Positions 5,182-35,832 are shown, counted from the first letter of the stretch. The stretch: 64,000 bases of DNA from Candidatus Limnocylindrales bacterium (GCA_038328755.1 JBBQMH010000001.1:18422-82421); one strand, 5' to 3'. Program-made: numbers and translations. Notes: generated by a model from the letters alone, not told the origin.

Positions 5182-6621
5182 GTGACTTCGGCGTCGCGGG
5201 TCGGTTCGATCGGCGGGGCGCGTTCCGCATCCACCGCGTTCGTCGTCGCCCTCGCCATCGACCTCGTTGCGCTCATGGCCCTGGGCTGGCTGGTCGTGGT
5301 CGGCACCCCGGCCATCGATGTCGGTTTCGCCCCTCAGCCTGACGATCGATGGCTCGTCACATCCGTCGCTCCGGGAGGCGTCGCCTGGAACAACGGGATC
5401 CGGCCCGGCATGGAGGTCGTCGGGGTCAGTCCTGGCGACGCGCTCCCGTCGGGCGAATGGACGTCCGTGCTCGTCACCGATGGGGCGGTCCGGATCACCA
5501 TCCAGCGCCACGACCTGCCGCCCGGTCCGGAGCTGTTGGTCGCCGGCATCGTCGCCCTCGGGCTGGCGATCCTTGCCTTCCGCCCCGTACCGTCCGTGGC
5601 CTGGTGGCTTGCCCTTGCGCCAGCGATCGTCACGTCGCTCACTGGCGCACTGATCGTGGATCCGCCGCTCAATCTGGCGTTCGAGCTTGGAGGGCCCCTC
5701 ATCGGCGCGCTCTACGTGGTGGCGGCAGCTCGCCCCGTGGCGCGGAACGCGCGGTGGATCGTTCTCGGGACCGGCGCCGCGTTCCTCCTTGTCTGGGGCG
5801 TGTCGTATGTCACCGCAGGAGAGGACTGGCGCATCCTTCGCGACCTGTCGGTTGCCGTCAGCCTCGCCCTGGCCGCGGTGGCGCTGGGAGTGACCGTCCG
5901 GTCGGCGTTCGCGCGAGCTCGGGCGCGGACGGGGACGGGGACGCCACTGTCCACGCTATCGCCCGTGGCCGCGCTGGGACTCGTCGTCGACGAACTCGTC
6001 CCCGGTCGAAGCAGAACGCGGGTGACCGCCATCGAGCGCGAGCGCGCCCGCCTGGCGACCGAGCTCCACGCCGACGTCCTGCCGGACCTGTCTGCCGTGA
6101 TCCGGTCAATCGAGGAAGGTGCCTCAGGTGAACAGGCAGCCGAGAGACTGCGCGGCATCGCTGCCGAACTGCGAGACCTGATGGCCGAACGGCGGCTGAG
6201 CGTCCTGGAACAGCTCGGGCTTGTTCCCGCTCTGGAATGGCTCGTCGAGCAGGTGGAGGGGCGGACAGGCGTCCGCGTCGAGCTCGACGTGGAAGGCGCC
6301 AGCGTCGATTGGGAAGCACGGCCGCCGCGCGACGTTGAGTTGACGGCCTACCGGGTCTGCCAGCAGGCACTCGACAACGCGCTGCTGCACGCCCGGCCGA
6401 CCAGCATTCGCGTGCGGCTCGATGTGGACGCGGGTCACGCTGAGCTCGAGGTCAGCGATAACGGCGTCGGCATCCGATCCGGAGACGAGGAGCGGGCGCT
6501 CCGGTCCGGCCACCTCGGCCTGGGCGACATGCGTCAACGGGCGGCCGCGATCGGGGCCGCTCTCCACATCGGCCCGCGGCAAGACGGGGGAACGATGGTG
6601 CTGCTGCGCTGGCCGGCATGA
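5182..6621 (+). CDS. sensor histidine kinase, NarL/HisKA_3 type, multi-TM with PDZ-like extracytoplasmic segment
   Basis: TM helices; ERERARLATELHADV H-box; C-terminal HATPase (LDNALLHARP, SDNGVGI, GLGLGDM). Confidence 0.8.
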   Translation: MTSASRVGSIGGARSASTAFVVALAIDLVALMALGWLVVVGTPAIDVGFAPQPDDRWLVTSVAPGGVAWNNGIRPGMEVVGVSPGDALPSGEWTSVLVTDGAVRITIQRHDLPPGPELLVAGIVALGLAILAFRPVPSVAWWLALAPAIVTSLTGALIVDPPLNLAFELGGPLIGALYVVAAARPVARNARWIVLGTGAAFLLVWGVSYVTAGEDWRILRDLSVAVSLALAAVALGVTVRSAFARARARTGTGTPLSTLSPVAALGLVVDELVPGRSRTRVTAIERERARLATELHADVLPDLSAVIRSIEEGASGEQAAERLRGIAAELRDLMAERRLSVLEQLGLVPALEWLVEQVEGRTGVRVELDVEGASVDWEARPPRDVELTAYRVCQQALDNALLHARPTSIRVRLDVDAGHAELEVSDNGVGIRSGDEERALRSGHLGLGDMRQRAAAIGAALHIGPRQDGGTMVLLRWPA

Positions 6622-7232
6622 TCCGCGTGCTCATCGCCGACGACCATCCGTCGACCGCCATGGGCCTCGGCCAGCTGCTCGGTCGCGAGCGCGACCTCGA
6701 TGTGGTCGGCCTGGCCGAGGACGTCGAGGGTGCCCTGACGCTCGCTCGTAGCCTGGCGCCGGATCTGGTCCTCTGCGACATTCAGCTCCAGGGCGAGGCC
6801 GGCGGCTTCGAGATCCTGCGACGACTCGAGCGCGAGAACCCGCCCCCGGTGCTCCTCTTCAGCTCGTTCGACTACCCGGCCTTCCAGCAACGGGCGCTCG
6901 AGCTTGGCGCCCGCGGGTATCTCCTGAAGACGAGCAGCGTCCGAGAGATCGTGGCCGCGATTCGCCATGTCGCGGGGGGCGGCTCGGCCTTCATGGCGAT
7001 GGCATCTCGGGGCAAGGCCACCGAGCCTCGGGCGCCATCCGAGCGGGAGCTCGCGCTCATTCGACTCGTCCGGTCGGGTTTCACCAACGACGAGGCGGGG
7101 GTCCGGCTCGGGATGGGCACTCGCGGCGTGGAGAGCTCGCTCCGACGGCTGTTCCAGCGCTACGGGACCTTGAGCAGGACGGAACTCGTGACCTACGCTG
7201 AAGGGCAGGGTTGGCTCGCACTCGATCCGTAA
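6618..7232 (+). CDS. response regulator, NarL/LuxR family
   Basis: REC domain (IRVLIADDHP...LCDIQL) plus C-terminal LuxR HTH; ATGA overlap with kinase. Confidence 0.9.
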   Translation: MIRVLIADDHPSTAMGLGQLLGRERDLDVVGLAEDVEGALTLARSLAPDLVLCDIQLQGEAGGFEILRRLERENPPPVLLFSSFDYPAFQQRALELGARGYLLKTSSVREIVAAIRHVAGGGSAFMAMASRGKATEPRAPSERELALIRLVRSGFTNDEAGVRLGMGTRGVESSLRRLFQRYGTLSRTELVTYAEGQGWLALDP

Positions 7233-14943: not shown

Positions 14944-15248
14944 CCGAGGCTCCGAGGATGGGTGTCACGCACGGCCCGACCGGCGGCGAACTGCGACCTG
15001 CCGCTCGCGGTGCTGCTCACCACCTTGTACTCGCCAGGTGGGCGAACGGCAACCACGGCGCGCGCGGCATCGGCCAGGGCGTGCCCGCTGCGTTTCGCCC
15101 CCGACAAGGCCACTGCGCGCCGCCGAGGAGCGGCCGGCCGTCGCACTCGAGGACGCCTGGGATCGCCGGTGGGATCGTCCGAGCAGACCGGGATCGCCGG
15201 CCTGTCACCCTCGGCATCGCTGAACGAAATAAGTAGTGTCGTTCGGGC

Positions 15249-15279
15249 TTGACAGGCACCCGGGCAATGCGCGTAAATC
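15249..15279 (+). promoter_or_regulatory. candidate sigma70-type promoter in AT-rich island (TTGACA-N19-TAAATC)
   Basis: Perfect -35 hexamer inside ~45% GC stretch upstream of 15337 gene. Confidence 0.3.
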
Positions 15280-15336
15280 CTTAGTAATCCACGAGTCAAC
15301 TATAACGCATACGACTTTCGAAGAGCGAATTCTCCC

Positions 15337-15843
15337 ATGAAGCGCGGCCTCAATCCCGTCGCCTTGCTTGTCGTCTTGGTTGGCTTCCCGATCGTGGTTG
15401 GCTTCCGAGGATCGTCATCGCTTGGGGCACCCACCCCACGGACTCCGACCGTGGCGGTCTCCGCTCGGCCGGCTCCATCCGCTACGGTCGGGGCAACGCC
15501 GGTCCGCCTCAGCTTCAAAGGCAAGTCTGAGCCGGTCGCAGCGGCCGCCGACTGTGTCAAGTTGGACCTGTCGACTTTCTACACCGCCTTTTGCCAGTTC
15601 CTTGTCACGCCAGCCTGGAGTCGGATACCAGTTTCGGCGGCCGACATCGGCCCGACTCCTGCAATGCTTGCTCGGTTGGTCCGTGCCGGCGTCGAGAACG
15701 ACCCATCTGTTTGTAGCGGGACCTATGAAAGTCATCCAAGCCTTGGGGCGCGCGTTGCCGAAGTTGACCTTGGCGGTCGTGCTGACGGGTGCCGCATGCC
15801 GCGGCCCAGCGTCCAACACTGGCGTCGATGTCGCATTCGTTAA
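15337..15843 (+). CDS. hypothetical secreted protein (about 130-168 aa; 3' end uncertain)
   Basis: Signal peptide MKRGLNPVALLVVLVGFPIVVGF; C-terminal ~40 aa Arg-rich and overlaps next gene in another frame. Confidence 0.45.
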   Translation: MKRGLNPVALLVVLVGFPIVVGFRGSSSLGAPTPRTPTVAVSARPAPSATVGATPVRLSFKGKSEPVAAAADCVKLDLSTFYTAFCQFLVTPAWSRIPVSAADIGPTPAMLARLVRAGVENDPSVCSGTYESHPSLGARVAEVDLGGRADGCRMPRPSVQHWRRCRIR

Positions 15844-16123
15844 CCTGACAAGCAATCAGGCGCTGGTGTTCTGGTCGGTCGACGCGGCTGGGCTCGCGAG
15901 CGTGCAGCCTGAGGCCGTGGCGCCGTGCACCGTCATGCGCCGTAGCTTCGAACACGGGAAGACATTCACCGTTAAAGTTCAGATCGGAGCTCGCGAGGAC
16001 GAGTTCCCAATCGTCGTTCCCAACGGGTCGGACTCGCGTCAGGACCGAGTCCTGATCACGGCCGAAGGTGCAGACTACCAACAGGGCGCCGTCTGGGACG
16101 TCTCGGCAGCGCCATGCGTCTAG
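15725..16123 (+). CDS. hypothetical lipoprotein (132 aa)
   Basis: MKVIQALGRALPKLTLAVVLTGAAC lipobox. Confidence 0.5.
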   Translation: MKVIQALGRALPKLTLAVVLTGAACRGPASNTGVDVAFVNLTSNQALVFWSVDAAGLASVQPEAVAPCTVMRRSFEHGKTFTVKVQIGAREDEFPIVVPNGSDSRQDRVLITAEGADYQQGAVWDVSAAPCV

Positions 16124-16302
16124 GACGACCAGCGCGGTCCACCCTCTCTGCCAAGCGAAAGCAATGGAGCGGCGCTCCGGCAACTTTAGCGCAGGCCACC
16201 ATCGGGACCATCGCTGTCCTTCGGCACGCCATTGGTGGACGGTTGACGTGTGAGAGGTGGCCGTCCACACAATCGAAACGAAACACCTGACCAGCGAAAC
16301 CG

Positions 16303-16331
16303 TTGACGCTCGAACCTGCCGCTGCTACCAT
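16303..16331 (+). promoter_or_regulatory. hrcA-operon promoter (TTGACG-N17-TACCAT)
   Basis: Canonical spacing immediately upstream of CIRCE. Confidence 0.5.
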
Positions 16332-16342
16332 CCGAAGCATCG

Positions 16343-16369
16343 TTAGCACTCTGGCATGGAGAGTGCTAA
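16343..16369 (+). promoter_or_regulatory. CIRCE operator TTAGCACTC-N9-GAGTGCTAA (HrcA binding site)
   Basis: Perfect match to CIRCE consensus inverted repeat. Confidence 0.9.
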
Positions 16370-16397
16370 CCAACCGTCAGCAACGGGAGTTCAAGCC

Positions 16398-17462
16398 TTG
16401 GCGCGTCGGATCCGTCGCTCCACCGGCCCGCTGGACCGTCGCGCAAACGCGATCCTCCGGGCCGTCATCGATGAATACGTCTCTTCAGCGATCCCCGTGG
16501 GCAGCCTCGCCCTCGTCGAACGCTACGGCCTCGGCGTGTCGAGCGCTACGGTCCGGAACATCCTCGCCGAGCTGGAGTTGTCTGGCCTGCTGACCCATCC
16601 GCACACCTCCGCCGGCCGAATCCCGACCGACGAGGGATATCGCTGGTACGTCGAGTCGATCATCGACTCCGCCCTGATGCCCGAGGTCGAGCAGCTGATG
16701 ATCCGCCACCAGTTCGGCCAGGTCGAATACGCCAATGAGCACTGGTTCCGACTCGCCGCGTCCACCATCGCGTCCGTCACGCGCGCGGCGGGGATCGCCA
16801 CACCGGCCAAGCCCGTCGCGGCCCAGGTCCGGCGCGTGGATCTCGTCGAGATCAACGATCGGCTGGCGAGTCTCGTGGTGGTGCTCCGCGAGGGAACGAT
16901 CAAGCAGGTGCTGATCAACATCGAGGAAGGGACGAGCCAGGAGTCACTGACCGAGGTTGCAGCCGCGCTGAACTCGATCGTGGATGGTCGAAGGGCCGTG
17001 GAGATCAGCCGGGCCATCGCCCGTCTCAGCAGTGCCAGCCCCCAGGCTGACGTGGTTCGCCGGGTCGCCGATCGAATCGTCGCCCTGCTCCGCGAGTACG
17101 ACATGGCCACCGTCGAGGAGGTCTTCAGCGACGGCCTGCTGAACGTCATGGGCGCCCCGGAATTCGCCCAGAGCGACAAGCTTCGACGCGTCTTTTCGGC
17201 CCTCGAGAACCGCGCCTACCTCGGCGAACTGGTCGAGGCCGTGGCTGCGTCCGGCGACGTCCAGGTCTTCATCGGCCACGAGAACGCTCCCGACGACATG
17301 CGCGAAGTCGCCCTGGTGCTGGCGCCATACGGGCAGACCGGCCGGGCCGTCGGGGTCGTCGGTGTCCTTGGCCCGACCCGGATGGCCTATCCACAGGCCA
17401 TCGGAACCGTCCGCTTCGTGTCGGGCCTCATGAACGAACTCGTCGACCACCTGTACGCCTGA
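16398..17462 (+). CDS. hrcA: heat-inducible transcription repressor HrcA
   Basis: LRAVIDEYVSSAIPVGS, ATVRNILAELE, GRIPTDEGYRWYV; ORF-track ATG 16356 lies inside the CIRCE spacer, so TTG 16398 (GGGAG upstream) is proposed. Confidence 0.88.
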   Translation: MARRIRRSTGPLDRRANAILRAVIDEYVSSAIPVGSLALVERYGLGVSSATVRNILAELELSGLLTHPHTSAGRIPTDEGYRWYVESIIDSALMPEVEQLMIRHQFGQVEYANEHWFRLAASTIASVTRAAGIATPAKPVAAQVRRVDLVEINDRLASLVVVLREGTIKQVLINIEEGTSQESLTEVAAALNSIVDGRRAVEISRAIARLSSASPQADVVRRVADRIVALLREYDMATVEEVFSDGLLNVMGAPEFAQSDKLRRVFSALENRAYLGELVEAVAASGDVQVFIGHENAPDDMREVALVLAPYGQTGRAVGVVGVLGPTRMAYPQAIGTVRFVSGLMNELVDHLYA

Positions 17463-17484: not shown

Positions 17485-18108
17485 ATGGACAAGCGAACCC
17501 GCGCCAAGCAGCGCGCCGAAGACATCGACATCAGCCCGGTGAAACTCCTCGCGGATATCGAGGAGTTGTCCGGAGCCAGGGACGCCGCACTCGCGGAGAA
17601 GGACGAGTTTCTCGTCGCACTCCAGCGTGAGCGTGCCGAATTCGTGAACTATCGTCGCCGGAGCGCCGAGGAGCGCCAGGCGATGATCGGCCTGGCCGGG
17701 GAGGGCTTGATCAACAAGGTCCTCAACCTCGCCGACGACTTCGACCGCGCAATCGAGGCGCGGCCCGAGAACATCGCCGAGGACCCGTGGGTCGAGGGGA
17801 TCGCCGCCATAGATCGGAAACTCCGCCAGTTACTCGAGAGCGAGGGCGTGTCACCGATTGACGCGACCCCCGGCATGCGCTTCGATCCCCGCGAGCACGA
17901 GGCCGTGGCGAACGTCCCCGGATCGTCGCTGCCGGACGGCGCGATCGTCGGCGAGCTGCGGCGCGGGTATCGACTTCGTGACCGCGTTCTCCGACCGGCC
18001 CTCGTGGCCGTTGCCGCGGGCGGCGATGACAGCACAGGTCCCGGCGGCGCAGGCGCCGCTTCACGGGGCGGCGCAGGCGCCGGACCAACCGACAACCCCA
18101 TCCACTGA
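17485..18108 (+). CDS. grpE: nucleotide exchange factor GrpE
   Basis: GrpE signature ...EFVNYRRR...; between hrcA and dnaK. Confidence 0.9.
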   Translation: MDKRTRAKQRAEDIDISPVKLLADIEELSGARDAALAEKDEFLVALQRERAEFVNYRRRSAEERQAMIGLAGEGLINKVLNLADDFDRAIEARPENIAEDPWVEGIAAIDRKLRQLLESEGVSPIDATPGMRFDPREHEAVANVPGSSLPDGAIVGELRRGYRLRDRVLRPALVAVAAGGDDSTGPGGAGAASRGGAGAGPTDNPIH

Positions 18109-18135: not shown

Positions 18136-20118
18136 GTGGGAAAGATCATCGGCATCGACCTCGGCACGACGAACTCAGTCGTGGCCGTCATGGAGGGCGG
18201 CGAGCCCACCGTCATCGCCTCGGCCGAGGGAGGCCGGACCGTGCCGTCGGTCGTCGGCTTCAGCAAGACCGGCGAGCGCCTCGTCGGAGCCCTGGCCAAG
18301 CGCCAGTCCGTGACGAACCCGGCCAATACGGTCTATTCGATCAAGCGGTTCATGGGGCGCCGCTGGGATGATCCCGAGGTCAAGCACAGCATCGGGCTCG
18401 TCCCGTACACCGTCGAGAAGGACCCCAAGAGTGACGGCATCCGCGTGAAGCTCGCGGACGGCAACGCCTACTCGCCGCCGGAAATCTCGGCCATGATCCT
18501 GCAGAAGCTCAAGGCCGACGCCGAGGCCTACCTCAACGAGAAGGTCACCGAGGCGGTGATCACCGTCCCGGCCTACTTCGACGACACCCAGCGCCAGGCG
18601 ACCAAGGACGCGGGCCGCATCGCCGGCCTCGACGTCAAGCGAATCATCAACGAACCGACCGCGTCGGCCCTGGCCTACGGTCTCGACAAGAAGCACGACG
18701 AGAAGATCGCGGTCTACGACCTCGGTGGCGGCACGTTCGACATCTCCATCCTCGAGCTCGGCGATGGCGTGTTCGAGGTCAAGGCCACGAACGGCGACAC
18801 GCATCTTGGCGGAGACGACTTCGATCAGCGCGTCATCGACTGGCTGCTGGCCGAGTTCAAGAAGGACCAGGGGATCGACCTGGCCAAGGACGCCCAGGCG
18901 CTCCAGCGCCTCAAGGAGGCCGCTGAGAAGGCCAAGATCGAGCTCAGCTCGACGATGTCCACGGAGATCAACCTCCCGTACGTCACCGCCGATGCCACCG
19001 GGCCGAAGCACCTCGTGATCAACCTCTCGAGGGCAAAGCTGCAGGACCTCGTCGGCGACCTGATCGACAAGACCAAGGGCCCCGTCCTCGCGGCGCTCAA
19101 AGATGCTGGCCTCAAGCCGGCCGACATCGACGAGGTGATCCTAGTCGGTGGCATGACCCGCATGCCGGCCGTCCAGGAGCTGGTCAAGAGCCTGTTCGGG
19201 AAGGAGCCGCACCGCGGCGTGAATCCGGACGAGGTGGTCGCCGTCGGGGCTGCCATCCAGGCCGGCGTGCTCGGCGGCGAGGTCAAGGACGTCCTGCTCC
19301 TCGACGTCACGCCGCTGTCGCTCGGCATCGAGACGCTCGGTGGCGTCATGACCCGGCTCATCGATCGCAACACCACCATCCCGACCTCGAAGTCGCAGAC
19401 GTTCTCCACGGCTTCGGACAACCAGAACCAGGTCGAGATCCACGTCCTCCAGGGCGAGCGCGACTTCGCGGCCGATAACAAGACCCTCGGACGCTTCATC
19501 CTCGATGGCATCCCTCCGGCCCCGCGGGGAATCCCGCAGGTCGAGGTGACGTTCGATATCGACGCGAACGGCATCCTCGACGTCAAGGCCAAGGACCGCG
19601 CGACCAGCAAGGAGCAGCAGGTCCGTATCACCGCTTCGTCGATGCTGGACAAGTCGGCCGTGGACCAGATGGTCCGCGATGCGCAGGAGCATGCCGAGGA
19701 AGACCGCACGCGACGCGAAGAGGTCGAGACCCGGAACCAGGCCGAGCAGCTCACCTACCAGGCCGAGAAGACCCTCAAGGACCTTGGCGACAAGGTCTCG
19801 CCCGAAGACCGTGCGGAGGTCGAGACCAAGGTCGCGAGCCTGCGCGAGTCGCTCAAGGGAGACGACCTCGCCGTCGTCAAGTCCGGCGCCGAGACCCTGG
19901 CCGAGTCGTTGAGTCGAGTTGGTGCGGCCGCGTACCAGGCGGCGTCGGCGGCCGGTGACGGTGACGCGGGTGGCTTCAACCCGAACGGCGGCGACGCCTT
20001 CACCGGTGGCGAGGGTTCCGGCGACGCGTCCGGGGCCGATGGCGCCGGTGCTGGCGACGGAGCCGGGAGTGGCGACACTGACGGCGAAACGGTCGAGGGC
20101 GAGTTCAAGGAGGTCTAG
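18136..20118 (+). CDS. dnaK: chaperone DnaK (Hsp70)
   Basis: [33 protein letters not shown]. Confidence 0.97.
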
Positions 20119-20129
20119 ACCTCGAGCCC

Positions 20130-20300
20130 TTGCGCGGGCGCGGAGTCCGCGGACGCCCGGTTCAGCATGTGCGGGCGCGCCGGGCTCATGGGCGGGCGCG
20201 CCGGGCCGCCGCGGGACGCCGGGCTCATGTGCGGGCGCGCCGGGCTCATGGGCGGGCGCGGGGCTCATGCGCGGGCGCCGCATCGAGCAGGGTCGGCGCT
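20130..20300. repeat. GC-rich tandem repeat array (~5 units of ~20-21 nt, GCGGGCGCGCCGGGCTCATGG-like)
   Basis: Degenerate contiguous units, no spacers. Confidence 0.7.
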
Positions 20301-20436
20301 GTGACGCCATGTGCTGGCGAGGCGCCAGGCCTGGAATACGGTCAGATATTCACCGTGTACCTACTCGTCGACGAATCCGTGTCAGCCAGTCATCTCGCGA
20401 CTCGGTGACGAGAAATGAGACGTGTCCAGGGAGCGC

Positions 20437-21159
20437 CTACGCACGTCCGCTCCGTCGCGGCCCGGCGATGCGTTGACGTCCGGTCACTCCATGACTATCT
20501 GGCAGGAACCACAAGCCGCGGAGCGGGCGAACAGGATCGGGCGCGCGGAGGTACCTCCGGATCGAGACAGACCGATCGGGAAAGACGGCCCCGAGGGTGT
20601 CCGCGTATTCGGTGACTCGCCGCCGAGACGTCCGAGTGTCTGCGATCACGAGAATTCGGCCGGTCACCGTGGTACTCCAACCGAGCCGACCCGCGATGTC
20701 GGCACTGAGCCGCACCTTCCGATCCAGGGTCGAAAGCGTGCCCTGCAGATCCGGAACAACCGTCTTGACCTCGATCACGAGGACTACTCCGGTCCCCGGG
20801 TGTCGTGCCAGGACATCGACCGAGCCGCGCTCTCCGTAGACGGCAAACGTGACCTCACTCGAACACTCCCAGCCGTCGCCCCGAAGCATGCCCATGACTC
20901 GCTCAGTGAGCCGCGCGTGATCGGTGTCGAGCAGGCGATCCAGGGCTTCACCGTTGAAGTCGAGGCGCACGTTGACCCGCGCGCCGAGGGCTGCGGCGAC
21001 CCGTTCGAGTTTCCAGATTGGCATGCGATCGACCTTGCCGCGTTCGATTCGCGCGACGAACGACTGGGACACCGATGCCGCATCGGCGAGGTCGCGCTGT
21101 CTCCAGTGCCGCCGCCGGCGTAGCGCTCGAATGCCGCGGCCAAATCGAATGCCGTCCAC
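20437..21159 (-). CDS. XRE-family HTH transcriptional regulator with uncharacterised C-terminal domain (240 aa)
   Basis: N-terminal LRRRRHWRQRDLADAASVSQSFVARIERGK (HTH_XRE pattern); divergent from ABC exporter. Confidence 0.75.
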   Translation of the reverse strand: MDGIRFGRGIRALRRRRHWRQRDLADAASVSQSFVARIERGKVDRMPIWKLERVAAALGARVNVRLDFNGEALDRLLDTDHARLTERVMGMLRGDGWECSSEVTFAVYGERGSVDVLARHPGTGVVLVIEVKTVVPDLQGTLSTLDRKVRLSADIAGRLGWSTTVTGRILVIADTRTSRRRVTEYADTLGAVFPDRSVSIRRYLRAPDPVRPLRGLWFLPDSHGVTGRQRIAGPRRSGRA

Positions 21160-21180
21160 AGGCTCGATGTTCGGCCTGCG

Positions 21181-21300
21181 TACTCACCTCGCGGTTATGG
21201 GGAAGTTCGCGGACCCGCGCCCCGCGCCCCGCGGACCCGCGCCCCGCGCCCCGCGGACCCGCGCCCCCGCGCCCCGCGGACCCGCGCCCCGCGCCACCAG
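21181..21300. repeat. GC-rich tandem repeat array (~4 units of ~22 nt, GACCCGCGCCCCGCGCCCCGCG-like)
   Basis: Roughly reverse-complement in character to the 20130-20300 array, so the two bracket the regulator gene. Confidence 0.7.
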
Positions 21301-21351
21301 GCACGGCCTTGCCCGCGCTGCACCCGCGATCCCGGGTAGCATTCCGTACCC

Positions 21352-22293
21352 ATGTCAATCAACTCGGACACACCTCCGCTGATCAGCGCGCGCGGCCTGA
21401 CGAAGCGGTTCGGGTCGTTCACCGCGGTCGATGCCATTGACTTCGATGTCGCGCCGGGCGAGGCGTTCGGATTCCTCGGCCCGAACGGCGCCGGCAAGAC
21501 TTCGACCATGCGCATGATCGGGTGCACCTCGCCGTCGAGCGGCGGGACACTGAGTGTCCTGGGCATGGACCCGGCCACCCAGGGGCCTGAGATCCGGGGC
21601 CGGCTCGGTGTCGTTCCGCAGGCAGACACCCTTGACGAGGAGCTGTCGGTCCGCGAGAACCTGCTCATCTACGGCCGCTACTTCGGTCTGGGCCGTGCCG
21701 AATGCGCAAAGCGGGCCGACGAGCTCCTGGACTTCGCCCAACTGTCGGAGCGTCGGGACAGTCGGGTCGAGCCACTCAGCGGCGGGATGAAGCGACGCCT
21801 GACCATCGCCCGGTCCCTCATCAACGAGCCGGACATGATGCTGCTCGACGAGCCCACCACGGGCCTGGACCCGCAGGCGCGCCATCTTCTCTGGGATCGA
21901 CTGTACCGGCTGAAGCAGCGCGGCGTCACGCTCGTCCTGACGACGCACTACATGGACGAGGCCGAACAGCTCTGCGACCGCCTCGTGATCATGGACAAGG
22001 CGCGCATCGTGGCCGAGGGATCACCACGCAAGCTGATCGCTGAGTACAGCACGCGCGAGGTCGCGGAACTCCGGTTTCCGGCCGGGGTCCAGGAGACGCT
22101 CGGTCAGCAGCTCGACGGACTCGCGGACAGGGTCGAGCACCTGCCGGATCGTCTGCTGCTCTACGCCGACGATGGAGAAGCGGTCGCCGTCGCTATCCAC
22201 GATCGAGGTCTTCGCCCGGAGACGGTGCTCGTTCGGCGGTCGACGCTCGAGGACGTCTTTCTCCGACTGACCGGTCGGTCGCTGGTCGATTGA
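21352..22293 (+). CDS. ABC-2 type transporter ATP-binding protein (DrrA/NodI-like)
   Basis: GPNGAGKTST, LSGGMKRRL, LLDEPTTGLD. Confidence 0.9.
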   Translation: MSINSDTPPLISARGLTKRFGSFTAVDAIDFDVAPGEAFGFLGPNGAGKTSTMRMIGCTSPSSGGTLSVLGMDPATQGPEIRGRLGVVPQADTLDEELSVRENLLIYGRYFGLGRAECAKRADELLDFAQLSERRDSRVEPLSGGMKRRLTIARSLINEPDMMLLDEPTTGLDPQARHLLWDRLYRLKQRGVTLVLTTHYMDEAEQLCDRLVIMDKARIVAEGSPRKLIAEYSTREVAELRFPAGVQETLGQQLDGLADRVEHLPDRLLLYADDGEAVAVAIHDRGLRPETVLVRRSTLEDVFLRLTGRSLVD

Positions 22294-22306
22294 TCGCGCG
22301 CCCGCG

Positions 22307-23149
22307 ATGACCCCGATCGGGACCCGGTCCACGGCAACGCGCGCCGCCACTCGACCCCCAGCACCCTCGCTCGTGGCGGCCGCGAGCCGCGTGTTCGAGC
22401 ATCGGGCCACGACGTACCGGCGCGTATTCCTGGGCTCGCTGTTCACCTCGTTCGTGAGCCCGACCCTCTTTCTGATGGCGATGGGCCTGGGCCTCGGAGG
22501 ACTCGTGAACGCCCAGAGCCCGGATGCGTTCGGGGGCATCACTTACCTCCAGTTCCTCGCCCCGGGCCTCCTCGCCGGCTCCGCGATGCAGACCGGGATC
22601 TTCGAGGCCACGTTTCCGATCATTCGCGGTCTCGTCTGGCGGCGGATCTTCCACGCCATGTATGCGACACCCATCAGCCCGGAGGCCGTGGCGCTCGGGA
22701 CGCTCGCGTTCATCGCCTTCCGACTCCTGCTCGTCGCCACGGTCTTCACCCTGGTCAGCGCGCTGTTCGGGGCGACGACCTCGCCCCTCGCCCTCCTGGG
22801 CATCCCGGCGGCTGTCCTGACGGGGCTGGCGTTCAGCGGGCTCATGGGGGCCTACATGGCCACCCAGCGAACGCCCGACAAGTTCAGCGCGATCTTTCGC
22901 TGGGTCGTCACCCCGCTCTTTCTGTTCAGTGGGACGTTCTTTCCGGTGAGCCGGCTCCCGGAGGTAATCCAGCCCATCGCCTGGCTTTCACCGCTCTGGC
23001 ATGGCGTCGAGCTGACGCGCGGCGCGTCGCTCGGGACTCTGCTCGACGATCCGGTCCGGGCTTTCGTGCACCTGGCCGTTCTTGTCGGGCTCACAGTCCT
23101 CGGGGCCGCCCTCTTCGCCCGGAACATCCGCCAGAAGCTGGCCGCATGA
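22307..23149 (+). CDS. ABC-2 family transporter permease
   Basis: ~6 TM helices, ABC-2 pattern; follows ATPase. Confidence 0.85.
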   Translation: MTPIGTRSTATRAATRPPAPSLVAAASRVFEHRATTYRRVFLGSLFTSFVSPTLFLMAMGLGLGGLVNAQSPDAFGGITYLQFLAPGLLAGSAMQTGIFEATFPIIRGLVWRRIFHAMYATPISPEAVALGTLAFIAFRLLLVATVFTLVSALFGATTSPLALLGIPAAVLTGLAFSGLMGAYMATQRTPDKFSAIFRWVVTPLFLFSGTFFPVSRLPEVIQPIAWLSPLWHGVELTRGASLGTLLDDPVRAFVHLAVLVGLTVLGAALFARNIRQKLAA

Positions 23150-23949
23150 GCGGTGTTGCCCGGCCCACGCCAGCCGCCACCCGGCGCGTCCCGCGAGCGT
23201 GGCACCTGATCGAGCGAAACTTCTTCGTCTACCGCCGGACGTGGACAATCATCGTGTCGGGTTTCTTCGAGCCCCTGTTCTACCTGGTGGGCATCGGCTT
23301 CGGCCTTGGTCAGCTGGTGGGTGACGTTACCGGGCCCGGCGGACACCCGATCCCGTACGCTATGTTCGTCGCGCCGGCGCTTCTGGCTACGGGCGCCATG
23401 AACGGCGCGATCAACGAGGCTACCTACAACTTCTTCTTCAAGCTCAACTACAACCGGACCTTCCAGTCCGTGCTGGCGACGCCGTTGGCCGTCTGGGACG
23501 TGGCTATCGGCGAGCTGGGTTGGGCGCTGGTCCGCGGCGGACTGTATGCGCTGGGCTTCATGGTGGTCATCAGCGTGATGGGGCTCGTCACGTCGCCCCT
23601 GGCGATCCTGGCCTTCCCGGCGGCGCTGTTGCTCGGGTTTGCCATCGCCTCGGTCGGCATGGCTGCGACGTCGTTCATGCGCACCACCCAGGACTTCGAT
23701 GCGATCAACGTGGTGGTCCTGCCGATGTTCCTGTTCTCGGCGACCTTCTATCCCATCGAGACGTATCCGGAGGCGATCAGGGGGATCGTGGCCCTGACGC
23801 CCCTCTACCAGGGCGTCGCGCTGATCCGTGGGTTGACCGTCGGCGTCCTGGGGCCCGAGATGCTCTTCAACATCGTGTACCTCGTCCTGATGGGCGGGAT
23901 TGGCCTCTGGATCACCTCGCGACGACTGGACCGGGTCCTCCTGAAGTGA
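23146..23949 (+). CDS. ABC-2 family transporter permease (second subunit)
   Basis: Paralogous to preceding permease; ATGA overlap. Confidence 0.85.
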   Translation: MSGVARPTPAATRRVPRAWHLIERNFFVYRRTWTIIVSGFFEPLFYLVGIGFGLGQLVGDVTGPGGHPIPYAMFVAPALLATGAMNGAINEATYNFFFKLNYNRTFQSVLATPLAVWDVAIGELGWALVRGGLYALGFMVVISVMGLVTSPLAILAFPAALLLGFAIASVGMAATSFMRTTQDFDAINVVVLPMFLFSATFYPIETYPEAIRGIVALTPLYQGVALIRGLTVGVLGPEMLFNIVYLVLMGGIGLWITSRRLDRVLLK

Positions 23950-24701
23950 GCCCGGGACGGCCGCCCGACCCGAGCGCGCTGACGCGCGATGAGGCCCTCA
24001 ACTCCAGGCGCGCGGCGGCCCTCGAAGCCCTCCGCGACGAGATCGTGGAGTGCCGCCGCTGCCCGCGCCTCGTCGCCTGGCGCGAGCAGGTCGCGATCGA
24101 GAAGGTGGCCCGCTTTCGGGACGAGCCGTATTGGGGGCGACCAGCGCCGGGGTTTGGAGATCCCGCTGCACAGCTCCTGATCGTCGGCCTCGCGCCGGCC
24201 GCCCATGGCGCGAACCGGACGGGCCGGGTCTTCACGGGTGATGCGTCGGGCGACTTCCTCTGGCGCGCGCTCCACGAGGCGGGTCTGGCTGATCGCCCGT
24301 CCAGCCGCCGCGCAGACGACGGGCTGACGCTGACCGGTGTCCGGATCGCCGCTGCCGTGCGCTGTGCCCCGCCGGCCAACAAGCCGACGATCGACGAACG
24401 CGACAACTGTGCGCCGTTCCTCGCCCGGGAAATCGCCCTCCTCGACCAGACCAGGGTCATCCTGGCCCTCGGCCAGTTCGGATGGGACGCCGTGCTGCGC
24501 GTGCTGGCGGGCGCGGGCGACCCCATCCCTCGACCAAAGCCGAAGTTCGGGCATGGCGCCGAGACGATGATCGGGTCACGAATACTGGTCGGCTCATACC
24601 ACCCGAGCCAGCAGAACACGTTCACTGGCCGGCTGACCCGGGAGATGTTCGGCAACGTCCTGCGGCAGGCGATTGCCCTGGCGGCAGCAGCGCGTCCCTA
24701 G
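23946..24701 (+). CDS. udg: uracil-DNA glycosylase, family 4/5 (UdgB-like, Fe-S)
   Basis: ECRRCPRL...GLAPAAHGANRTG...GDASGD...CAPF...HPS motifs; GTG 23946 overlaps permease stop, ORF-track 23520 start is an out-of-frame overextension. Confidence 0.85.
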   Translation: MSPGRPPDPSALTRDEALNSRRAAALEALRDEIVECRRCPRLVAWREQVAIEKVARFRDEPYWGRPAPGFGDPAAQLLIVGLAPAAHGANRTGRVFTGDASGDFLWRALHEAGLADRPSSRRADDGLTLTGVRIAAAVRCAPPANKPTIDERDNCAPFLAREIALLDQTRVILALGQFGWDAVLRVLAGAGDPIPRPKPKFGHGAETMIGSRILVGSYHPSQQNTFTGRLTREMFGNVLRQAIALAAAARP

Positions 24702-24748
24702 CGGCGGATCTCGGCCACTCGCCCGCCCTCCCGTAGACTTCCGCCTGC

Positions 24749-25858
24749 ATGACTACCACGACCGACTACTACGCAGCCCTCGGCCTCGACCGCGGCGCGA
24801 CCGATGCGGAGATCAAGAAGCAATTCCGCAAGCTCGCCCAGCAGTGGCACCCGGACGTCAACAGCGACCCGGCCGCCCAGGCGCGGTTCAAGGAGATCAA
24901 CGAGGCCTACCAGGTCCTGTCCGATCCTGAGCGGCGGCAGCGCTACGACATCTTCGGGAGCGCTGGTGTCGAGGGTGATCCCAACATGGCCGGGTTCGGT
25001 GGGTTCGCCGACATCTTCGATGCGTTCTTTGGTGGCGCTGCCGGTGGCGCCGCTGGGCGTCGAGGCCGACCCGCAGCCGGCTCCGACCTCCGCTACGACC
25101 TGCGGATCACGTTCACGGAGGCCGTTCTCGGGACCGAGAAGGAGATCGACTTTCCGGTTCTCGGGCGGTGCGAGACGTGCTCGGGGATGGGAGCCAAGGC
25201 GGGTACGGAGGCGGTCGCCTGCACCCAGTGCAACGGACGCGGCGAGGTCCGCTCGGTCCGCCAGACGATGCTCGGTCAGATGGTCAACGTCACGACCTGC
25301 CCGCGCTGCCACGGTGATGGTAAGACCGTCGACGCCCCCTGCGAGACTTGTCGGGGCGATGGCCGGACCGAGCGCAAGAGCACGCTCCGGGTCAAGATTC
25401 CCGCCGGGATCGACGAGGGTCATCAGATCCGCCTGTCCAACGAGGGTGAAGTCGGGCCCCGCGGCGGGCCGGCCGGCAGCCTGTACGTCGCCGTTCACGT
25501 GGCACCGCACGAGGCGCTCAAGCGGGACGGGACCGAGCTGTATTACGAAGCCTCCGTGGGGATCGCCCAGGCGACCCTTGGGACGCGGATCCTCGTGCCG
25601 ACCGTAGAGGGCGAGGAGGACGTGGAGGTCAAGCCCGGCACCCAGCCCGGAACGGAGATCCGCCTGCGGGGACGCGGCGTCCCGCACCTGCGGCGGACCG
25701 GCTCGAGGGGCGACCTGCACGTGATCATCGATGTCGCTGTTCCAACGCGCTTGTCGAAGGCCGAGCGAGCGGCCCTGCACACGTATGCCGAGGCAGCCGG
25801 CGAGGTCGTCGCCGATGGCGGCGGGATCCTCGACCGCGTCCGTGACGCACTCGGCTAG
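24749..25858 (+). CDS. dnaJ: chaperone DnaJ
   Basis: J-domain DYYAALGL...HPD; four CxxCxGxG zinc-finger repeats; C-terminal domain. Confidence 0.95.
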   Translation: MTTTTDYYAALGLDRGATDAEIKKQFRKLAQQWHPDVNSDPAAQARFKEINEAYQVLSDPERRQRYDIFGSAGVEGDPNMAGFGGFADIFDAFFGGAAGGAAGRRGRPAAGSDLRYDLRITFTEAVLGTEKEIDFPVLGRCETCSGMGAKAGTEAVACTQCNGRGEVRSVRQTMLGQMVNVTTCPRCHGDGKTVDAPCETCRGDGRTERKSTLRVKIPAGIDEGHQIRLSNEGEVGPRGGPAGSLYVAVHVAPHEALKRDGTELYYEASVGIAQATLGTRILVPTVEGEEDVEVKPGTQPGTEIRLRGRGVPHLRRTGSRGDLHVIIDVAVPTRLSKAERAALHTYAEAAGEVVADGGGILDRVRDALG

Positions 25859-26927
25859 CGGACGGTCTCGCGGCCACCGGGCCGCGGCACAGCCGCCCCG
25901 ATCGGCCACGCAGCCGCGCGCCGCCGCGCAGCCGCGCGCGGCCAGGCAACCTCGACCAACCGCCACGCAGCCCGGATCGGCCACCACGACCCCACCGACC
26001 GCTTCGTCCTGGCTGGAGCTGGCGGTCGAAGCCGACCTCGAGGCGGTCGAGGCCGTCAGCGAGATCCTGGGCCGGTTTGCCCCGGGTGGCTCCAGCGTCG
26101 AGCCGGCCTTCGAGCTGGTGGACGAGGGTCTCGGGGCCCGCGTAGACCCAGCGCGCCCGGCGATCGTGCGTGCGTACATCCCGGCCGAAGATGCCGCCGC
26201 GGCACGCCGTGCCGCCCACGAGGCGGAGGCGGCGCTATCGCACCTCCAGGCCTTTGGCCTGCGGCCGATTGGCGAGCTGCAGGTGCGACAGGTCAACGAG
26301 AGCGACTGGGCCGGTGCCTGGAAGGTGCACTTCCCGGTCATGCGGATCGGTCGGCGGATCGTCATCCGACCCACCTGGCGACGACATCGAGCGACGCCCG
26401 GCGACGTGGTCCTGGCGCTCGATCCCGGCATGGCCTTCGGGACGGGGCTCCATCCCACCACCCGACTGTGCCTGACCGCGCTCGAGGTCGCCGCGGATCG
26501 CGGAGAACTTTCGGAGGCCCGCGTGCTCGACGTCGGCTGCGGCTCGGGGATCCTCGCGATCGCCGCCGCCCGACTCGGGGCCGAGGCGGTCCTCGGCGTG
26601 GATACCGACCCGATTGCCGTCGAAGCGACGACGGTCAATGCGCGCCGCAACCGTCTCGTCCGGCGGATCGCAGCGCGCGCAGGCTCCCTGCCGACGGGCG
26701 AGCCTCCGCATCACGTCGTGCTGGCGAATCTCATTGCCTCGGTCCTGATCGCATTGGCCGGCCAGCTTCGGGACGAGCTGCTGCCTGGCGGGCTGCTCCT
26801 CGCCTCGGGGATCTTCTCGGACCGCGAGCTCGAGGTGACCGACGCATTCCGGGACGTTGGGCTCGACGTGCTCCAGCGCTGGGCCGAGGGTGACTGGGTC
26901 GCCCTCGAGGTCCGACGGCCCGACTGA
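25815..26927 (+). CDS. prmA: ribosomal protein L11 methyltransferase PrmA (start uncertain)
   Basis: Conserved PrmA from SWLELAVEADLE to DVGCGSGILAIAA; no ATG/GTG/TTG in frame between dnaJ stop and this region, so an ATG overlapping dnaJ is provisionally chosen. Confidence 0.75.
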   Translation: MAAGSSTASVTHSASGRSRGHRAAAQPPRSATQPRAAAQPRAARQPRPTATQPGSATTTPPTASSWLELAVEADLEAVEAVSEILGRFAPGGSSVEPAFELVDEGLGARVDPARPAIVRAYIPAEDAAAARRAAHEAEAALSHLQAFGLRPIGELQVRQVNESDWAGAWKVHFPVMRIGRRIVIRPTWRRHRATPGDVVLALDPGMAFGTGLHPTTRLCLTALEVAADRGELSEARVLDVGCGSGILAIAAARLGAEAVLGVDTDPIAVEATTVNARRNRLVRRIAARAGSLPTGEPPHHVVLANLIASVLIALAGQLRDELLPGGLLLASGIFSDRELEVTDAFRDVGLDVLQRWAEGDWVALEVRRPD

Positions 26928-26951
26928 ACGTCCGCCTCTACAATCCACGCG

Positions 26952-33540: not shown

Positions 33541-35832
33541 GTGCTGGCTCATCGCGGAACCGACGCCGTCCGCCTGACCCGCCGCGAGGCTGGCCGGCTG
33601 GCGATCGCAGCCATTGCCCTGATCGTGGCAATGACGGCGATCCTCGGCGCCGATTTTTCGCCCAAGCGAGTCGACCTGCAGGTGGGGGACCTCGTCCCGG
33701 CCGATATCGTCGCCCCGCGCGCCCTGACCTACGAGAACACTGTTCTGACCGAGCAGGCTCGCCAGGCGGCGATCGACAGCGTCCCGCCCCAGTACGACTT
33801 TACGACTGAACGTGCGATCACGATCGCATCCGTTCAGGCCCAGACGTTCGCTGACAAGGTCAACCCGCTCGACGCGGCATTCGACCCCTCGACACCCGCC
33901 GTCGACCGCAGCGCCACCATCGAGGGATTCGCCGTGGCACTCTCTCCTGGTTCGGCGAATGCCCTTCGATCGCTCGATCTCGTGCGCTGGATCCCCATCC
34001 GGACCGAGGCGGCACGGGTGCTCGACAGCACGGAGCGCAGCGAGCTCAGGGATACCGAGGTTGCCGTCACGCAGTCGAGGCTGTCCGAACAGATGGCGGG
34101 TGGCCTGTCGGAGGCGGAGCGCATGCTCGCTGCGGAGCTGATCGCGCCACTCATCGTCCCGAACAGTTCCTTCAGTGCGGAACTGACTCAGCAGGAGCAG
34201 GACCGCCGCGCGGCAGAGGTTTCGCCCGTAACCGAGTCGTACCTGCCGCGCGAAATCCTCGTCCGCGGCGGAACCAAGTTGACGATTTCGGACGCCGCCG
34301 TCCTGGCCGCCTTCGGACTCGACAATGCCACGACCGATTTCGCCCAGCTGGCTGGCTGGTTCGTGCTGAGTGCCCTCCTGGTCGCGCTCCTGCTCGGCTG
34401 GATCTGGCGCTTCCGCCGGAGCTTCTGGCACCGCACCAACGTCCTGCTCCTGATCGGACTGCTGCTCCTGTTTGCGACGTTTGCGCTGCAGCTCACGGCG
34501 GGCCGGGCCGCACTGCCGTTTGTTCTCCCGCTGGCGGCCATTCCAGTGCTTGTCGCCGTCCTCCTCGACGCGGAGGTGGCAATCGTCCTGGCGGCGCTGG
34601 TCGCCGTCGTCGCCGGCGCCGTGAACGGTCCGTCCCTCGAGCTCGCGGCGTACGTTTTTCTGGGCGGCCTGGCGGGTGTGCTCGGCGTCCGGCGCGGGGA
34701 TCGCCTCCAGACGTTCCTGCAGGCCGGTGCCGTGGCATTCGTGGTCCAGGCGCTCGTCGTCACGGCCTTCTCGCTGCTCGGTGAACGGGACGTGACCGGG
34801 ACCGTCCAGCTGGTCGCTGCAGCTGGCATCAGTGCCGGTGGCGCGGCGGTCGTGGCGGTCGGGACGTTCGCGGTCCTGGGCAACGTCTTCGGGATCCTGA
34901 CGGTCTTCCAGCTCCTCGAACTGGCGAATCCGTCCCAGCCACTCCTTCGCCGACTGCTGATCGAGACGCCTGGCACGTATCACCACTCGCTGATGGTCGG
35001 GAACCTCGCCGAGCGCGCGGCAGAGGCGGTCGGCGCTGATCCGCTGCTGACCCGCGTCGCGGCCTACTACCACGACCTCGGGAAGCTCAACAACCCCGCT
35101 GGCTTCATCGAGAACCAGGCCGGCGGAGAGAACCTCCATGATCAGTTGACACCCGAGGAGTCGTCCCAGGTGCTGAAGGCGCACGTCGCGGATGGCATCA
35201 ACATCGCCTACGAGGGCCGCCTGCCAAAGGCGCTCATCGCGTTCATCCCACAGCACCACGGGACCGCTTCGATCAGCTACTTCTATGCCAAGGCTCGAGA
35301 GGAAGCCGCAGCGCCGTACGGCGGAGTGGAGACCGAAACCGGGGGAAAGGCGGCCGATACCGTCGATATCCGGAAGTACCGACACTCGGGACCGAAGCCG
35401 CAGTCCCGCGAGGCGGCGATCATCATGCTGGCCGATGGGGTCGAGGCGTCCGTGCGATCGCTGTCATCGCGCGACGAGGTCGCGATCCGCGGCATGGTTT
35501 CCCGGATCATCGCCGACCGGATGTCCGACGGGCAGTTCGACGAATGCGACCTGACGTTCCGCGACCTGGATCGGGTTCAGGAGGCCTTTGTCCAGCAACT
35601 CCTCGGCATGTACCACCAGCGGGTCGCCTACCCACAGAGCAAGGTGGTGGAGCAGGAGGCGCGGCGCGCTGCTGCCGCCGCGGCCGGTATCGACGGCACC
35701 GCCGCGGCGAAGGCGGGCGACGGCACCGCCGCGGCGAAGGCCGGCGAAGGCGACCCCGCGGCGAAGGCGGGCGAAGGCGACCCCGTCGCGAAGGCGGGCG
35801 AAGGCGACCCCGCGGCCCAGGGCAAAGGGTGA
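33541..35832 (+). CDS. pgpH: 7TM receptor HD phosphohydrolase (PgpH-like c-di-AMP phosphodiesterase)
   Basis: N-terminal extracytoplasmic domain, 7 TM, HD domain (YHHSLMVGNLAERAAE, YYHDLGK); C-terminal (AKAGEGDP)n repeats. Confidence 0.9.
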   Translation: MLAHRGTDAVRLTRREAGRLAIAAIALIVAMTAILGADFSPKRVDLQVGDLVPADIVAPRALTYENTVLTEQARQAAIDSVPPQYDFTTERAITIASVQAQTFADKVNPLDAAFDPSTPAVDRSATIEGFAVALSPGSANALRSLDLVRWIPIRTEAARVLDSTERSELRDTEVAVTQSRLSEQMAGGLSEAERMLAAELIAPLIVPNSSFSAELTQQEQDRRAAEVSPVTESYLPREILVRGGTKLTISDAAVLAAFGLDNATTDFAQLAGWFVLSALLVALLLGWIWRFRRSFWHRTNVLLLIGLLLLFATFALQLTAGRAALPFVLPLAAIPVLVAVLLDAEVAIVLAALVAVVAGAVNGPSLELAAYVFLGGLAGVLGVRRGDRLQTFLQAGAVAFVVQALVVTAFSLLGERDVTGTVQLVAAAGISAGGAAVVAVGTFAVLGNVFGILTVFQLLELANPSQPLLRRLLIETPGTYHHSLMVGNLAERAAEAVGADPLLTRVAAYYHDLGKLNNPAGFIENQAGGENLHDQLTPEESSQVLKAHVADGINIAYEGRLPKALIAFIPQHHGTASISYFYAKAREEAAAPYGGVETETGGKAADTVDIRKYRHSGPKPQSREAAIIMLADGVEASVRSLSSRDEVAIRGMVSRIIADRMSDGQFDECDLTFRDLDRVQEAFVQQLLGMYHQRVAYPQSKVVEQEARRAAAAAAGIDGTAAAKAGDGTAAAKAGEGDPAAKAGEGDPVAKAGEGDPAAQGKG

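Follow-up and report, generated by a model that had tools for sequence, protein, structure and literature searches.

The closest described counterpart of the locus considered here is Bacillus subtilis's dnaK operon (hrcA-grpE-dnaK-dnaJ-yqeT/prmA-yqeU-yqeV), a heptacistronic operon inside which a constitutive promoter precedes dnaJ (PMC2952846). We analysed a 64-kb stretch of DNA from a Candidatus Limnocylindrales bacterium (GCA_038328755.1, JBBQMH010000001.1:18422-82421), hereafter the window, in which the hrcA-grpE-dnaK-dnaJ operon is split, as had been recognised in a first-pass annotation of the sequence: dnaK and dnaJ are 4,630 bp apart and the interval between them contains five genes, one of them on the opposite strand. 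These genes encode an XRE-type regulator, an ABC-2 exporter made of an ATPase and two permeases, and a uracil-DNA glycosylase (UDG). The same annotation ascribed to the repeat-flanked regulator and the transporter the flavour of an acquired cassette. Our analysis leads to another view: the 4.6 kb between dnaK and dnaJ most probably constitute an ancient, vertically inherited interruption typical of Limnocylindria, organised in several putative transcription units, with a regulator that belongs to a larger protein family and with tandem arrays that arise by slippage.

Genes were called in the window by listing open reading frames (ORFs) and by Pfam and NCBIfam scans. As in B. subtilis, the order is hrcA-grpE-dnaK ... 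dnaJ-prmA, with lepA and hemW upstream. All five genes are on the plus strand: hrcA at 16356-17462 (Pfam HrcA, E=1.7e-45, the true start being probably 3' of the regulatory element described below), grpE at 17485-18108 (Pfam GrpE, E=6e-37), dnaK at 18136-20118 (Pfam HSP70, E=2e-264), dnaJ at 24749-25858 (NCBIfam DnaJ_bact, 405 bits, above the 377-bit cut-off) and prmA at 25815-26927 (Pfam PrmA, E=3.7e-71, with an uncertain start and a PrmA domain from about 26007). Located 5' of hrcA are lepA, an Rce1-like gene and a HemW-type radical-SAM gene. The two systems also share a perfect controlling inverted repeat of chaperone expression (CIRCE) behind a sigma-70-type promoter, and a separate dnaJ promoter, which is experimental in B. 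subtilis (PMC2952846) and inferred here. They differ in that 4.6 kb and three foreign functions separate dnaK from dnaJ in the window, in that the putative dnaJ promoter would be a leaderless one, and in that prmA is directly followed by DUF2269 and HIT genes instead of yqeU/yqeV-like genes. Because a Bacillus-type backbone, lepA-(Rce1-like)-hemW-hrcA-grpE-dnaK ... dnaJ-prmA, surrounds the interval, an insertion between dnaK and dnaJ at some time is the sensible reading. The dnaK/dnaJ junction would moreover be a natural seam at which an insertion does little harm, since B. subtilis has a constitutive promoter before dnaJ.

The annotated gene content of the interval held up in the domain scans. 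The regulator gene (20437-21159, minus strand; Pfam HTH_31) encodes an XRE helix-turn-helix (HTH) domain in residues 1-65, followed by a domain predicted by AlphaFold2 and Foldseek to have a PD-(D/E)xK nuclease fold (residues ~70-225). On the plus strand follow abcA, encoding a NodI/DrrA-like ABC transporter ATPase (21352-22293; Pfam ABC_tran), the genes of ABC-2 permease 1 (22307-23149; Pfam ABC2_membrane, E=2e-16) and ABC-2 permease 2 (23146-23949; Pfam ABC2_membrane, E=1.6e-15), and udgB, encoding a family-5 enzyme of the UDG superfamily (23946-24701; PDB 2D3Y, E=7e-66). The ATPase and both permeases exceed the Pfam gathering thresholds, as a general ABC-2 exporter should. These genes are tightly packed: abcA and the permease 1 gene are separated by 13 nt, the two permease genes share 4 nt, and the GTG start of udgB overlaps the TGA stop of the permease 2 gene as GTGA, an overlap already noticed in the first-pass annotation.

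Conservation of the locus among relatives

A DnaJ protein scan, retaining one genome per species, yielded 80 related loci with DnaJ identities of 66-89%; for all except three of them the label reads Chloroflexota, Candidatus Limnocylindrales or some other group of Chloroflexota. Look-ups of the XRE, DnaJ and ABC ATPase proteins of the window by exact sequence gave no match. Ten window proteins were compared with these loci by tblastn, and the denominators below count the loci with enough sequence. The UDG gene lies at most 3 kb upstream of dnaJ in 58/65 loci, the permease 2 gene is upstream of dnaJ in 52 of 53 and abcA in 45 of 47; in each of the 75 relatives in which dnaJ and prmA could both be located, prmA follows at no more than 300 nt. 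The median gaps between aligned stretches are 32 nt for abcA-permease 1, 59 nt for permease 1-permease 2, 53 nt for permease 2-udg and 68 nt for dnaJ-prmA, figures that, being based on tblastn, are upper bounds for the true gaps. Thus abcA and the two permease genes form one tight unit and dnaJ-prmA another, and the junction between permease 2 and udg is mostly tight as well. Because it is conserved by synteny across the 80 loci, the exporter-UdgB-dnaJ-prmA linkage is a class-wide, vertically inherited arrangement in Limnocylindria (Chloroflexota). This is essentially the outcome that the first-pass annotation had itself named as fatal to the idea of an acquisition, and the string is usable as a synteny marker for this abundant, uncultured class of soil and freshwater bacteria.

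The position of dnaK is less constant. It lies within 10 kb of dnaJ in 21 of the 41 long loci and within 1.5 kb in a single locus out of 61 (L044), where a ROK-family gene stands in between. The set of housekeeping genes differs among genomes at two variable seams, the stretch from dnaK to abcA and the junction between udg and dnaJ. The commonest form of the first seam has, after dnaK, three minus-strand genes encoding the XRE protein, a UbiA-family prenyltransferase and a PNPOx-like protein, and then abcA on the plus strand. Other relatives carry TrkH/TrkA at the variable seams, or UbiE and a major facilitator superfamily (MFS) transporter, a variant with another ABC system in front and dnaK not nearby; in some, a minus-strand polysaccharide deacetylase gene separates udg from dnaJ. 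The nearest relative by DnaJ (L001, 89% identity) combines the UbiE form with the deacetylase. The window is the most compact variant of the locus, and its order, with the XRE gene convergent with dnaK and divergent from abcA, recurs in L081 (GCA_039931955.1, XRE protein 81% identical) and L035. The UbiA, PNPOx-like, UbiE, TrkH and deacetylase genes of the relatives were not found elsewhere in the window. Literature searches on dnaK in Limnocylindria found nothing relevant.

The GC content is 0.685 in the interval (20119-24748) and 0.679 in the exporter-UDG block, against 0.684 in the window. The GC content at third codon positions (GC3) of abcA, the permease genes and udg is 0.83-0.89, for a window mean of 0.82 (standard deviation 0.05; 60 crude gene calls). 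The comparison of GC and codon usage proposed with the idea of a cassette therefore shows the exporter and UDG genes to be native and the XRE gene alone to be low. Pfam and NCBIfam scans found no integrase, transposase or recombinase domain, the 64-kb window contains no tRNA gene, and no target-site duplication or terminal repeat was found at the locus. Patchy presence, typical of genomic islands, is not seen for the exporter and UDG genes (45/47 to 58/65 loci) and applies to the XRE gene alone (17/41); deviant composition is likewise limited to the low GC3 of the XRE gene, and in place of related repeats at the ends there are arrays that resemble each other no more than expected by chance and flank only the XRE gene. 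In relatives this gene, located there from tblastn hits only, occurs after dnaK, between permease 2 and udg, or adjoining abcA. The regulator gene alone behaves as a variable element, one that is not consistently paired with the exporter.

Transcription signals

The element 5' of hrcA (16303-16369, plus strand) consists of a sigma-70-like promoter, TTGACG-17-TACCAT, followed 12 nt later by a perfect CIRCE at 16343-16369 (TTAGCACTC-N9-GAGTGCTAA; 0 mismatches, 0 matches expected by chance). In the window and in seven relatives CIRCE precedes hrcA only; it was never found before abcA or dnaJ, in the window or in the related loci, and the one other match is located 4.3 kb downstream of dnaJ in L061. 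The genes abcA and dnaJ are preceded by another kind of signal, a -10-like hexamer placed 9 nt before the ATG (TAGCAT at 21337-21342 for abcA, TAGACT at 24734-24739 for dnaJ, both on the plus strand), each marking a putative leaderless-type promoter. A hexamer about 9 nt before the ATG is the geometry of leaderless promoters. Among the relatives, 41 of 53 abcA genes and 65 of 78 dnaJ genes, the latter whatever gene stands upstream of them, have TAnnnT situated 6-10 nt upstream of the start codon, a hexamer that is absent from all grpE (0/15), dnaK (0/21), permease 1 (0/19), udg (0/8) and prmA (0/76) genes.

Because of this hexamer geometry before abcA and dnaJ, the data suggest leaderless transcripts and three plus-strand transcription units (hrcA-grpE-dnaK, abcA-permease-permease-udg and dnaJ-prmA) beside the regulator's own. 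The gene dnaJ does not directly follow dnaK and would belong to another transcription unit: a 4,630-bp gap with an opposite-strand gene lies between them, and dnaJ has its own -10-like element and no CIRCE. In this class, dnaJ thus appears uncoupled from HrcA/CIRCE and driven by its own leaderless-type promoter, a testable statement on heat-shock regulation in a poorly known phylum. A scan for intrinsic terminators returned about as many sites as expected by chance and none 3' of dnaK, and Rfam gave no credible match at E<=1 over 14.9-25 kb. Further downstream, the DUF2269 gene, whose ATG is at 26952, has TACAAT 7 nt ahead of this codon (hexamer region 26937-26951), which may be another leaderless-type start.

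The XRE-PD-(D/E)xK protein and its family

The XRE protein has 240 residues, and its numerous homologues share one common architecture. Its N-terminal 65 residues match C.AhdI, C.BclI, SinR and HigA2, and a PDB profile search gave matches restricted to the HTH. The C-terminal domain of about 170 residues, left unassigned in the first-pass annotation, still lacks a Pfam family at threshold, with some family members giving weak, sub-threshold matches to MmcB-like, YhcG_C and NERD; its fold can nevertheless be assigned with AlphaFold2 and Foldseek. In the AlphaFold2 model (mean pLDDT 88), a four-helix HTH at the N-terminus is followed by a C-terminal alpha-beta-beta-beta-alpha-beta core, formed by a helix (73-94), three strands (98-107, 110-119 and 125-132), a second helix (138-158) and a last strand (165-174). 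The best Foldseek matches outside the HTH are endonuclease domains, namely the restriction-like endonuclease (RLE) of the R2 retrotransposon, the restriction endonuclease 9WUF, AF1548 and XisH. An alignment of 42 sequences shows no variation at E102, D115 and E130 and hardly any at K132, all of them within the conserved string '...AxEVTF...GERGSVDxLA...LVIEVK...DRKxRL'. Judging from the model and this alignment, the C-terminal domain is predicted to adopt the PD-(D/E)xK nuclease fold, and it keeps the E-D-ExK motif intact.

Searched alone, this domain matches 1,483 cluster representatives, 943 of them at E<=1e-10, most with a length of about 240-260 residues and the nuclease-fold domain starting around residue 70. 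Clustered at 50% identity, the family thus amounts to about 1,500 clusters, in which the architecture of HTH and nuclease fold is fixed. Paralogues occupy other conserved sites, for instance, on two long contigs, one flanked by LytR_cpsA_psr and spermine synthase genes, and some relatives carry an additional one 3' of prmA. The XRE protein is therefore one paralogue of a large Limnocylindria-centred HTH-nuclease-fold family, for which our literature searches found no publication on an XRE-PDDEXK fusion. A scan for defence systems with PADLOC gave only generic HTH and ABC-ATPase matches. We also considered, and rejected, a controller (C) protein of a restriction-modification (R-M) system or an antitoxin of the HigA/HipB type: only the HTH matches such proteins, the 240-residue product has an extra domain, and no restriction, methylase or toxin gene adjoins the XRE gene, whose neighbours are dnaK and abcA.

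A motif upstream of the family genes bears on their regulation. In the window it reads ATAACCGCGAGGTGAGT (21182-21198, minus strand) and ends 22 nt before the XRE start codon, as a candidate operator or promoter element. The family consensus, (G/A)TAAGC-N4-5-GGTGAAGC, is matched as a regular expression in 16 of 33 family genes; 12 of these 16, paralogues at other loci among them, have the end of the motif 22-23 nt upstream of the start codon. On its 3' side, a CAnnnT hexamer lies about 7 nt before the start codon. This geometry of motif and hexamer suggests leaderless, autoregulated XRE-family genes, and the XRE protein of the window is itself probably autoregulated. A scan of the window with the motif matrix gave no second site scoring above shuffled sequence, so that no regulon can be proposed; the motif is unrelated to the tandem arrays described below. 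Loci carrying it include L015, L031, L037 and L038, and some have three direct copies about one helical turn apart. On the other side of the gene, just 3' of the XRE stop codon, alignment of the window with L081 and L082 delineates a non-coding block of lower GC content (20320-20436), conserved among the three about like coding sequence and not conserved in more distant loci; this block contains ACGGT-N9-ACCGT. With its size and its clear candidate cis-element, the HTH-nuclease family is an accessible target for biochemistry.

Tandem arrays

Two GC-rich tandem arrays bracket the regulator gene, as previously noted, and Tandem Repeats Finder places them precisely. Array 1 (20166-20280), between the convergent dnaK and XRE genes, is imperfect, with a unit of about 21 nt in about 5.6 copies and 80% matches. 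Array 2 (21208-21295), between the divergent XRE and abcA core promoters, has four copies of a 22-nt unit with 97% matches. Their supposed rough reverse complementarity did not withstand a comparison with randomised sequences: when array 1 is aligned locally with the reverse complement of array 2, the best score is 39, and 132 of 1000 shuffles of matched composition reach it, as do 405 of 1000 arrays for which the unit was shuffled and the array then rebuilt. The resemblance is only that of a G-rich and a C-rich composition. At 20132-20152, a single stretch of 21 nt is nearly an inverted copy of the unit of array 2; it was dismissed as falling within GC-rich noise, and RNA folding of the two array-bearing intergenic regions was no better than that of shuffles (z = +0.56 and +0.39).

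Such arrays are common in these genomes. We counted 49 strong arrays of diverse units in 1.3 Mb (the window and the fetched related loci), intergenic wherever the neighbours could be identified; in the window, four of the five strong arrays are intergenic. L081 has arrays at both positions corresponding to those of the window, with unrelated 16-nt units, and the unique flanking sequences still align. We therefore regard the arrays as intergenic repeats of the slippage type, hypervariable, and not as the boundaries of an element; the repeats that had been taken for the ends of a cassette are of this generic kind and are not terminal repeats. Further GC-rich arrays of the same general kind as arrays 1 and 2 lie in the window at 35702-35816, 48637-48718 and 61052-61142 (units of 27, 20/30 and 24 nt), two of them clearly intergenic and one at the 3' end of a long ORF. 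In L001, an array of 5.5 copies of a 15-nt unit (6557-6639) between abcA and permease 1, genes expected to form one operon, shows that tandem arrays also invade short spacers inside operons. An 18-nt array is present at the dnaJ-prmA junction (25905-25948); were prmA to start at 25815, PrmA would have a low-complexity N-terminal extension.

Proposed scenario and alternatives

Bringing these observations together, we propose the following scenario for the interruption. An ancestral string of the Bacillus type, lepA-hemW-hrcA-grpE-dnaK-dnaJ-prmA, would have been interrupted long ago between dnaK and dnaJ, and the present locus would function as four units. In the first, hrcA-grpE-dnaK would be transcribed from the sigma-70-like promoter under the control of HrcA/CIRCE. 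The second would be the minus-strand XRE-nuclease gene with its own family-specific upstream motif. The third, abcA-permease-permease-udgB, would be translationally coupled and expressed leaderless from the TAnnnT hexamer located 9 nt before the ATG, and the fourth, dnaJ-prmA, would also be leaderless, from its own TAGACT hexamer, leaving dnaJ uncoupled from CIRCE in a manner comparable to the internal promoter of B. subtilis. The XRE-nuclease protein would be an autoregulated paralogue of its family, and the arrays fast-evolving slippage repeats rather than the ends of a cassette.

Several points weigh against this scenario. Twenty of the 41 long loci have no dnaK within 10 kb, the exporter-UDG-dnaJ block being elsewhere relative to dnaK. 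Since this holds for about one long locus in two, a relocation of dnaJ beside the exporter cannot be distinguished from an insertion between dnaK and dnaJ. The diversity of the 80 loci gives the only bound on the insertion's age. Promoters and operon limits are deduced solely from conserved hexamers and gene spacing. The XRE gene, with a GC3 of 0.73, is 1.8 standard deviations under the window mean and is the sole low gene of the interval. Finally, arrays are about five-fold enriched beside XRE-family genes (6/22 versus 9/143 intergenic regions, odds ratio 5.6, p=0.006, in a test based on crude gene calls and non-independent loci), which a purely generic slippage does not explain. The loci of this association are L014, L037, L039, L050, L063, L081 and the window, and in four of them (the window, L081, L050 and L063) arrays lie on both sides of an XRE-family gene, including a gene at a different site.

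The alternative that survives best, although we consider it unlikely, is that the XRE-nuclease protein is a dedicated repressor of the divergent exporter-UDG operon, with the 22-nt repeats of array 2 as an iterated operator. The divergent arrangement of XRE and abcA, with 192 bp between their starts in the window, L081 and L035, fits such a role, as does the location of array 2, which spans the -35 zone of both putative core promoters and the sequence upstream of it. However, 15 of the 20 relatives with an XRE gene upstream of dnaJ have at least 600 bp from XRE to abcA, a gap occupied by the UbiA and PNPOx-like genes in the loci examined, and in four further of these 20 the XRE gene stands between permease 2 and udg. 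The sequence of the array is not conserved even in L081, the family-wide motif differs from it and adjoins the XRE start codon, and the motif matrix gives no site near abcA scoring above shuffled sequence. In our reading, the XRE protein is not a dedicated regulator of the exporter.

We hold it to be still less probable that the XRE-PD-(D/E)xK protein cuts or nicks DNA at specific sites, as a selfish or a domesticated enzyme, destabilises the flanking intergenic DNA and thereby produces the arrays and the variable gene position. Such a reading draws on the invariance of the catalytic residues E102, D115 and E130 and near-invariance of K132, on the top-ranking fold matches, which are genuine endonuclease domains (R2 RLE, a restriction endonuclease, XisH), and on the enrichment of arrays beside family members, on both sides of the gene in the window, L081, L050 and L063, even where the gene is at another site. 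If it were true, nuclease activity would generate hypervariable arrays and repeated reshuffling around an ancient string of housekeeping genes, and the family would represent regulators of a class not yet described, which cut or nick DNA in a sequence-specific way and cause instability of the neighbouring intergenic regions, a prospect to which we give little credence. The family members nevertheless occupy conserved syntenic positions over long evolutionary distances, which points to ordinary chromosomal paralogues rather than mobile ones; no target-site duplications or terminal repeats were found at the locus, the enrichment test has the limits given above, and many PD-(D/E)xK domains of regulators are not nucleases.

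A recent horizontal transfer of the XRE gene and the exporter, with or without the UDG, between dnaK and dnaJ, with the arrays as boundaries, is very improbable and largely refuted: the arrays do flank the regulator gene, whose GC3 is under that of its neighbours and which is upstream of dnaJ in only 17 of the 41 long loci, at three different positions, but the exporter-UDG block stands beside dnaJ class-wide with a native composition and without integrase, transposase or tRNA genes, the arrays enclose the XRE gene alone and leave the exporter outside, they are mutually unrelated beyond composition and wholly different in L081, a relative of equal gene order, and the XRE orthologues in the dnaK-proximal position are only 44-62% identical, which argues for a long residence. 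For annotation, the lesson is that a split chaperone operon and repeats do not amount to a mobile cassette.

Other features of the window

Between the hemW-like gene and hrcA, the window has a spacer of 1.4 kb (14944-16355; GC content 0.64) with almost no codon-position signal, where relatives such as L083 have only about 150 bp. It includes a possible lipoprotein ORF (15725-16123, MKVIQ...LTGAAC) and gave no Pfam match, no Rfam match and no repeats. The sole Rfam match at the gathering threshold over the whole window is a cobalamin riboswitch far from the locus (57980-58115, plus strand; RF00174, 34.3 bits for a gathering score of 31.5), located 5' of a gene starting at 58228.

Comparison with known systems

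Beyond the B. subtilis operon, each component of the interval has described counterparts. For the glycosylase it is TTUDGB of Thermus thermophilus (PDB 2D3Y/2DP6), the entry 2DP6 being the T. thermophilus family-5 UDGb (PMC9796141). The match extends over the full length (E=7e-66), the window enzyme has GLAPAxHGxNRTG as motif A and HPS as motif B, and all four of its iron-sulfur cysteines (C36, C39, C140 and C155) align, in agreement with the earlier identification as a UdgB-like 4Fe-4S protein. By sequence, the window UDG is assigned to family 5 (UdgB), with a predicted enzyme activity. Unlike TTUDGB, it has an N-terminal extension of about 25 residues, and its gene, translationally coupled, closes an ABC exporter operon. 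We know of no description of a UDGb paired with an ABC exporter operon, within searches that were not exhaustive.

The exporter resembles NodIJ and DrrAB(C), the ATPase being nearest to the NodI and DrrA models and the permeases to NodJ and DrrB. DrrABC combines one ATPase with two different ABC-2 permeases, as is the case in the window. The NCBIfam scores are 322 bits for NodI (cut-off 521), 270 for DrrA (cut-off 312) and 100-110 for NodJ (cut-off 207). A NodIJ-type exporter of nodulation factors was rejected on account of these scores, well under the equivalog cut-offs, and of the lack of nod genes nearby; neither nodulation nor polyketide genes were found near the exporter. As for the regulator, its N-terminal 65 residues are those of XRE HTH proteins such as R-M C proteins, HigA/HipB and SinR, and its C-terminal core with the E-D-ExK residues resembles PD-(D/E)xK proteins such as AF1548, XisH, the R2 RLE and MmcB-like proteins. 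Unlike all these, the window protein fuses an HTH to a nuclease fold and belongs to a family of its own of about 1,500 clusters.

Every component of the locus is thus of a known kind: an HrcA/CIRCE operon, an ABC-2 exporter, a family-5 UDG, an XRE HTH and a PD-(D/E)xK fold. The region is otherwise ordinary and holds nothing very surprising for the specialist. What is new is modest, and consists of a class-specific gene order, which places an exporter-UdgB operon between dnaK and dnaJ, and of a large, still unnamed HTH-nuclease-fold family.

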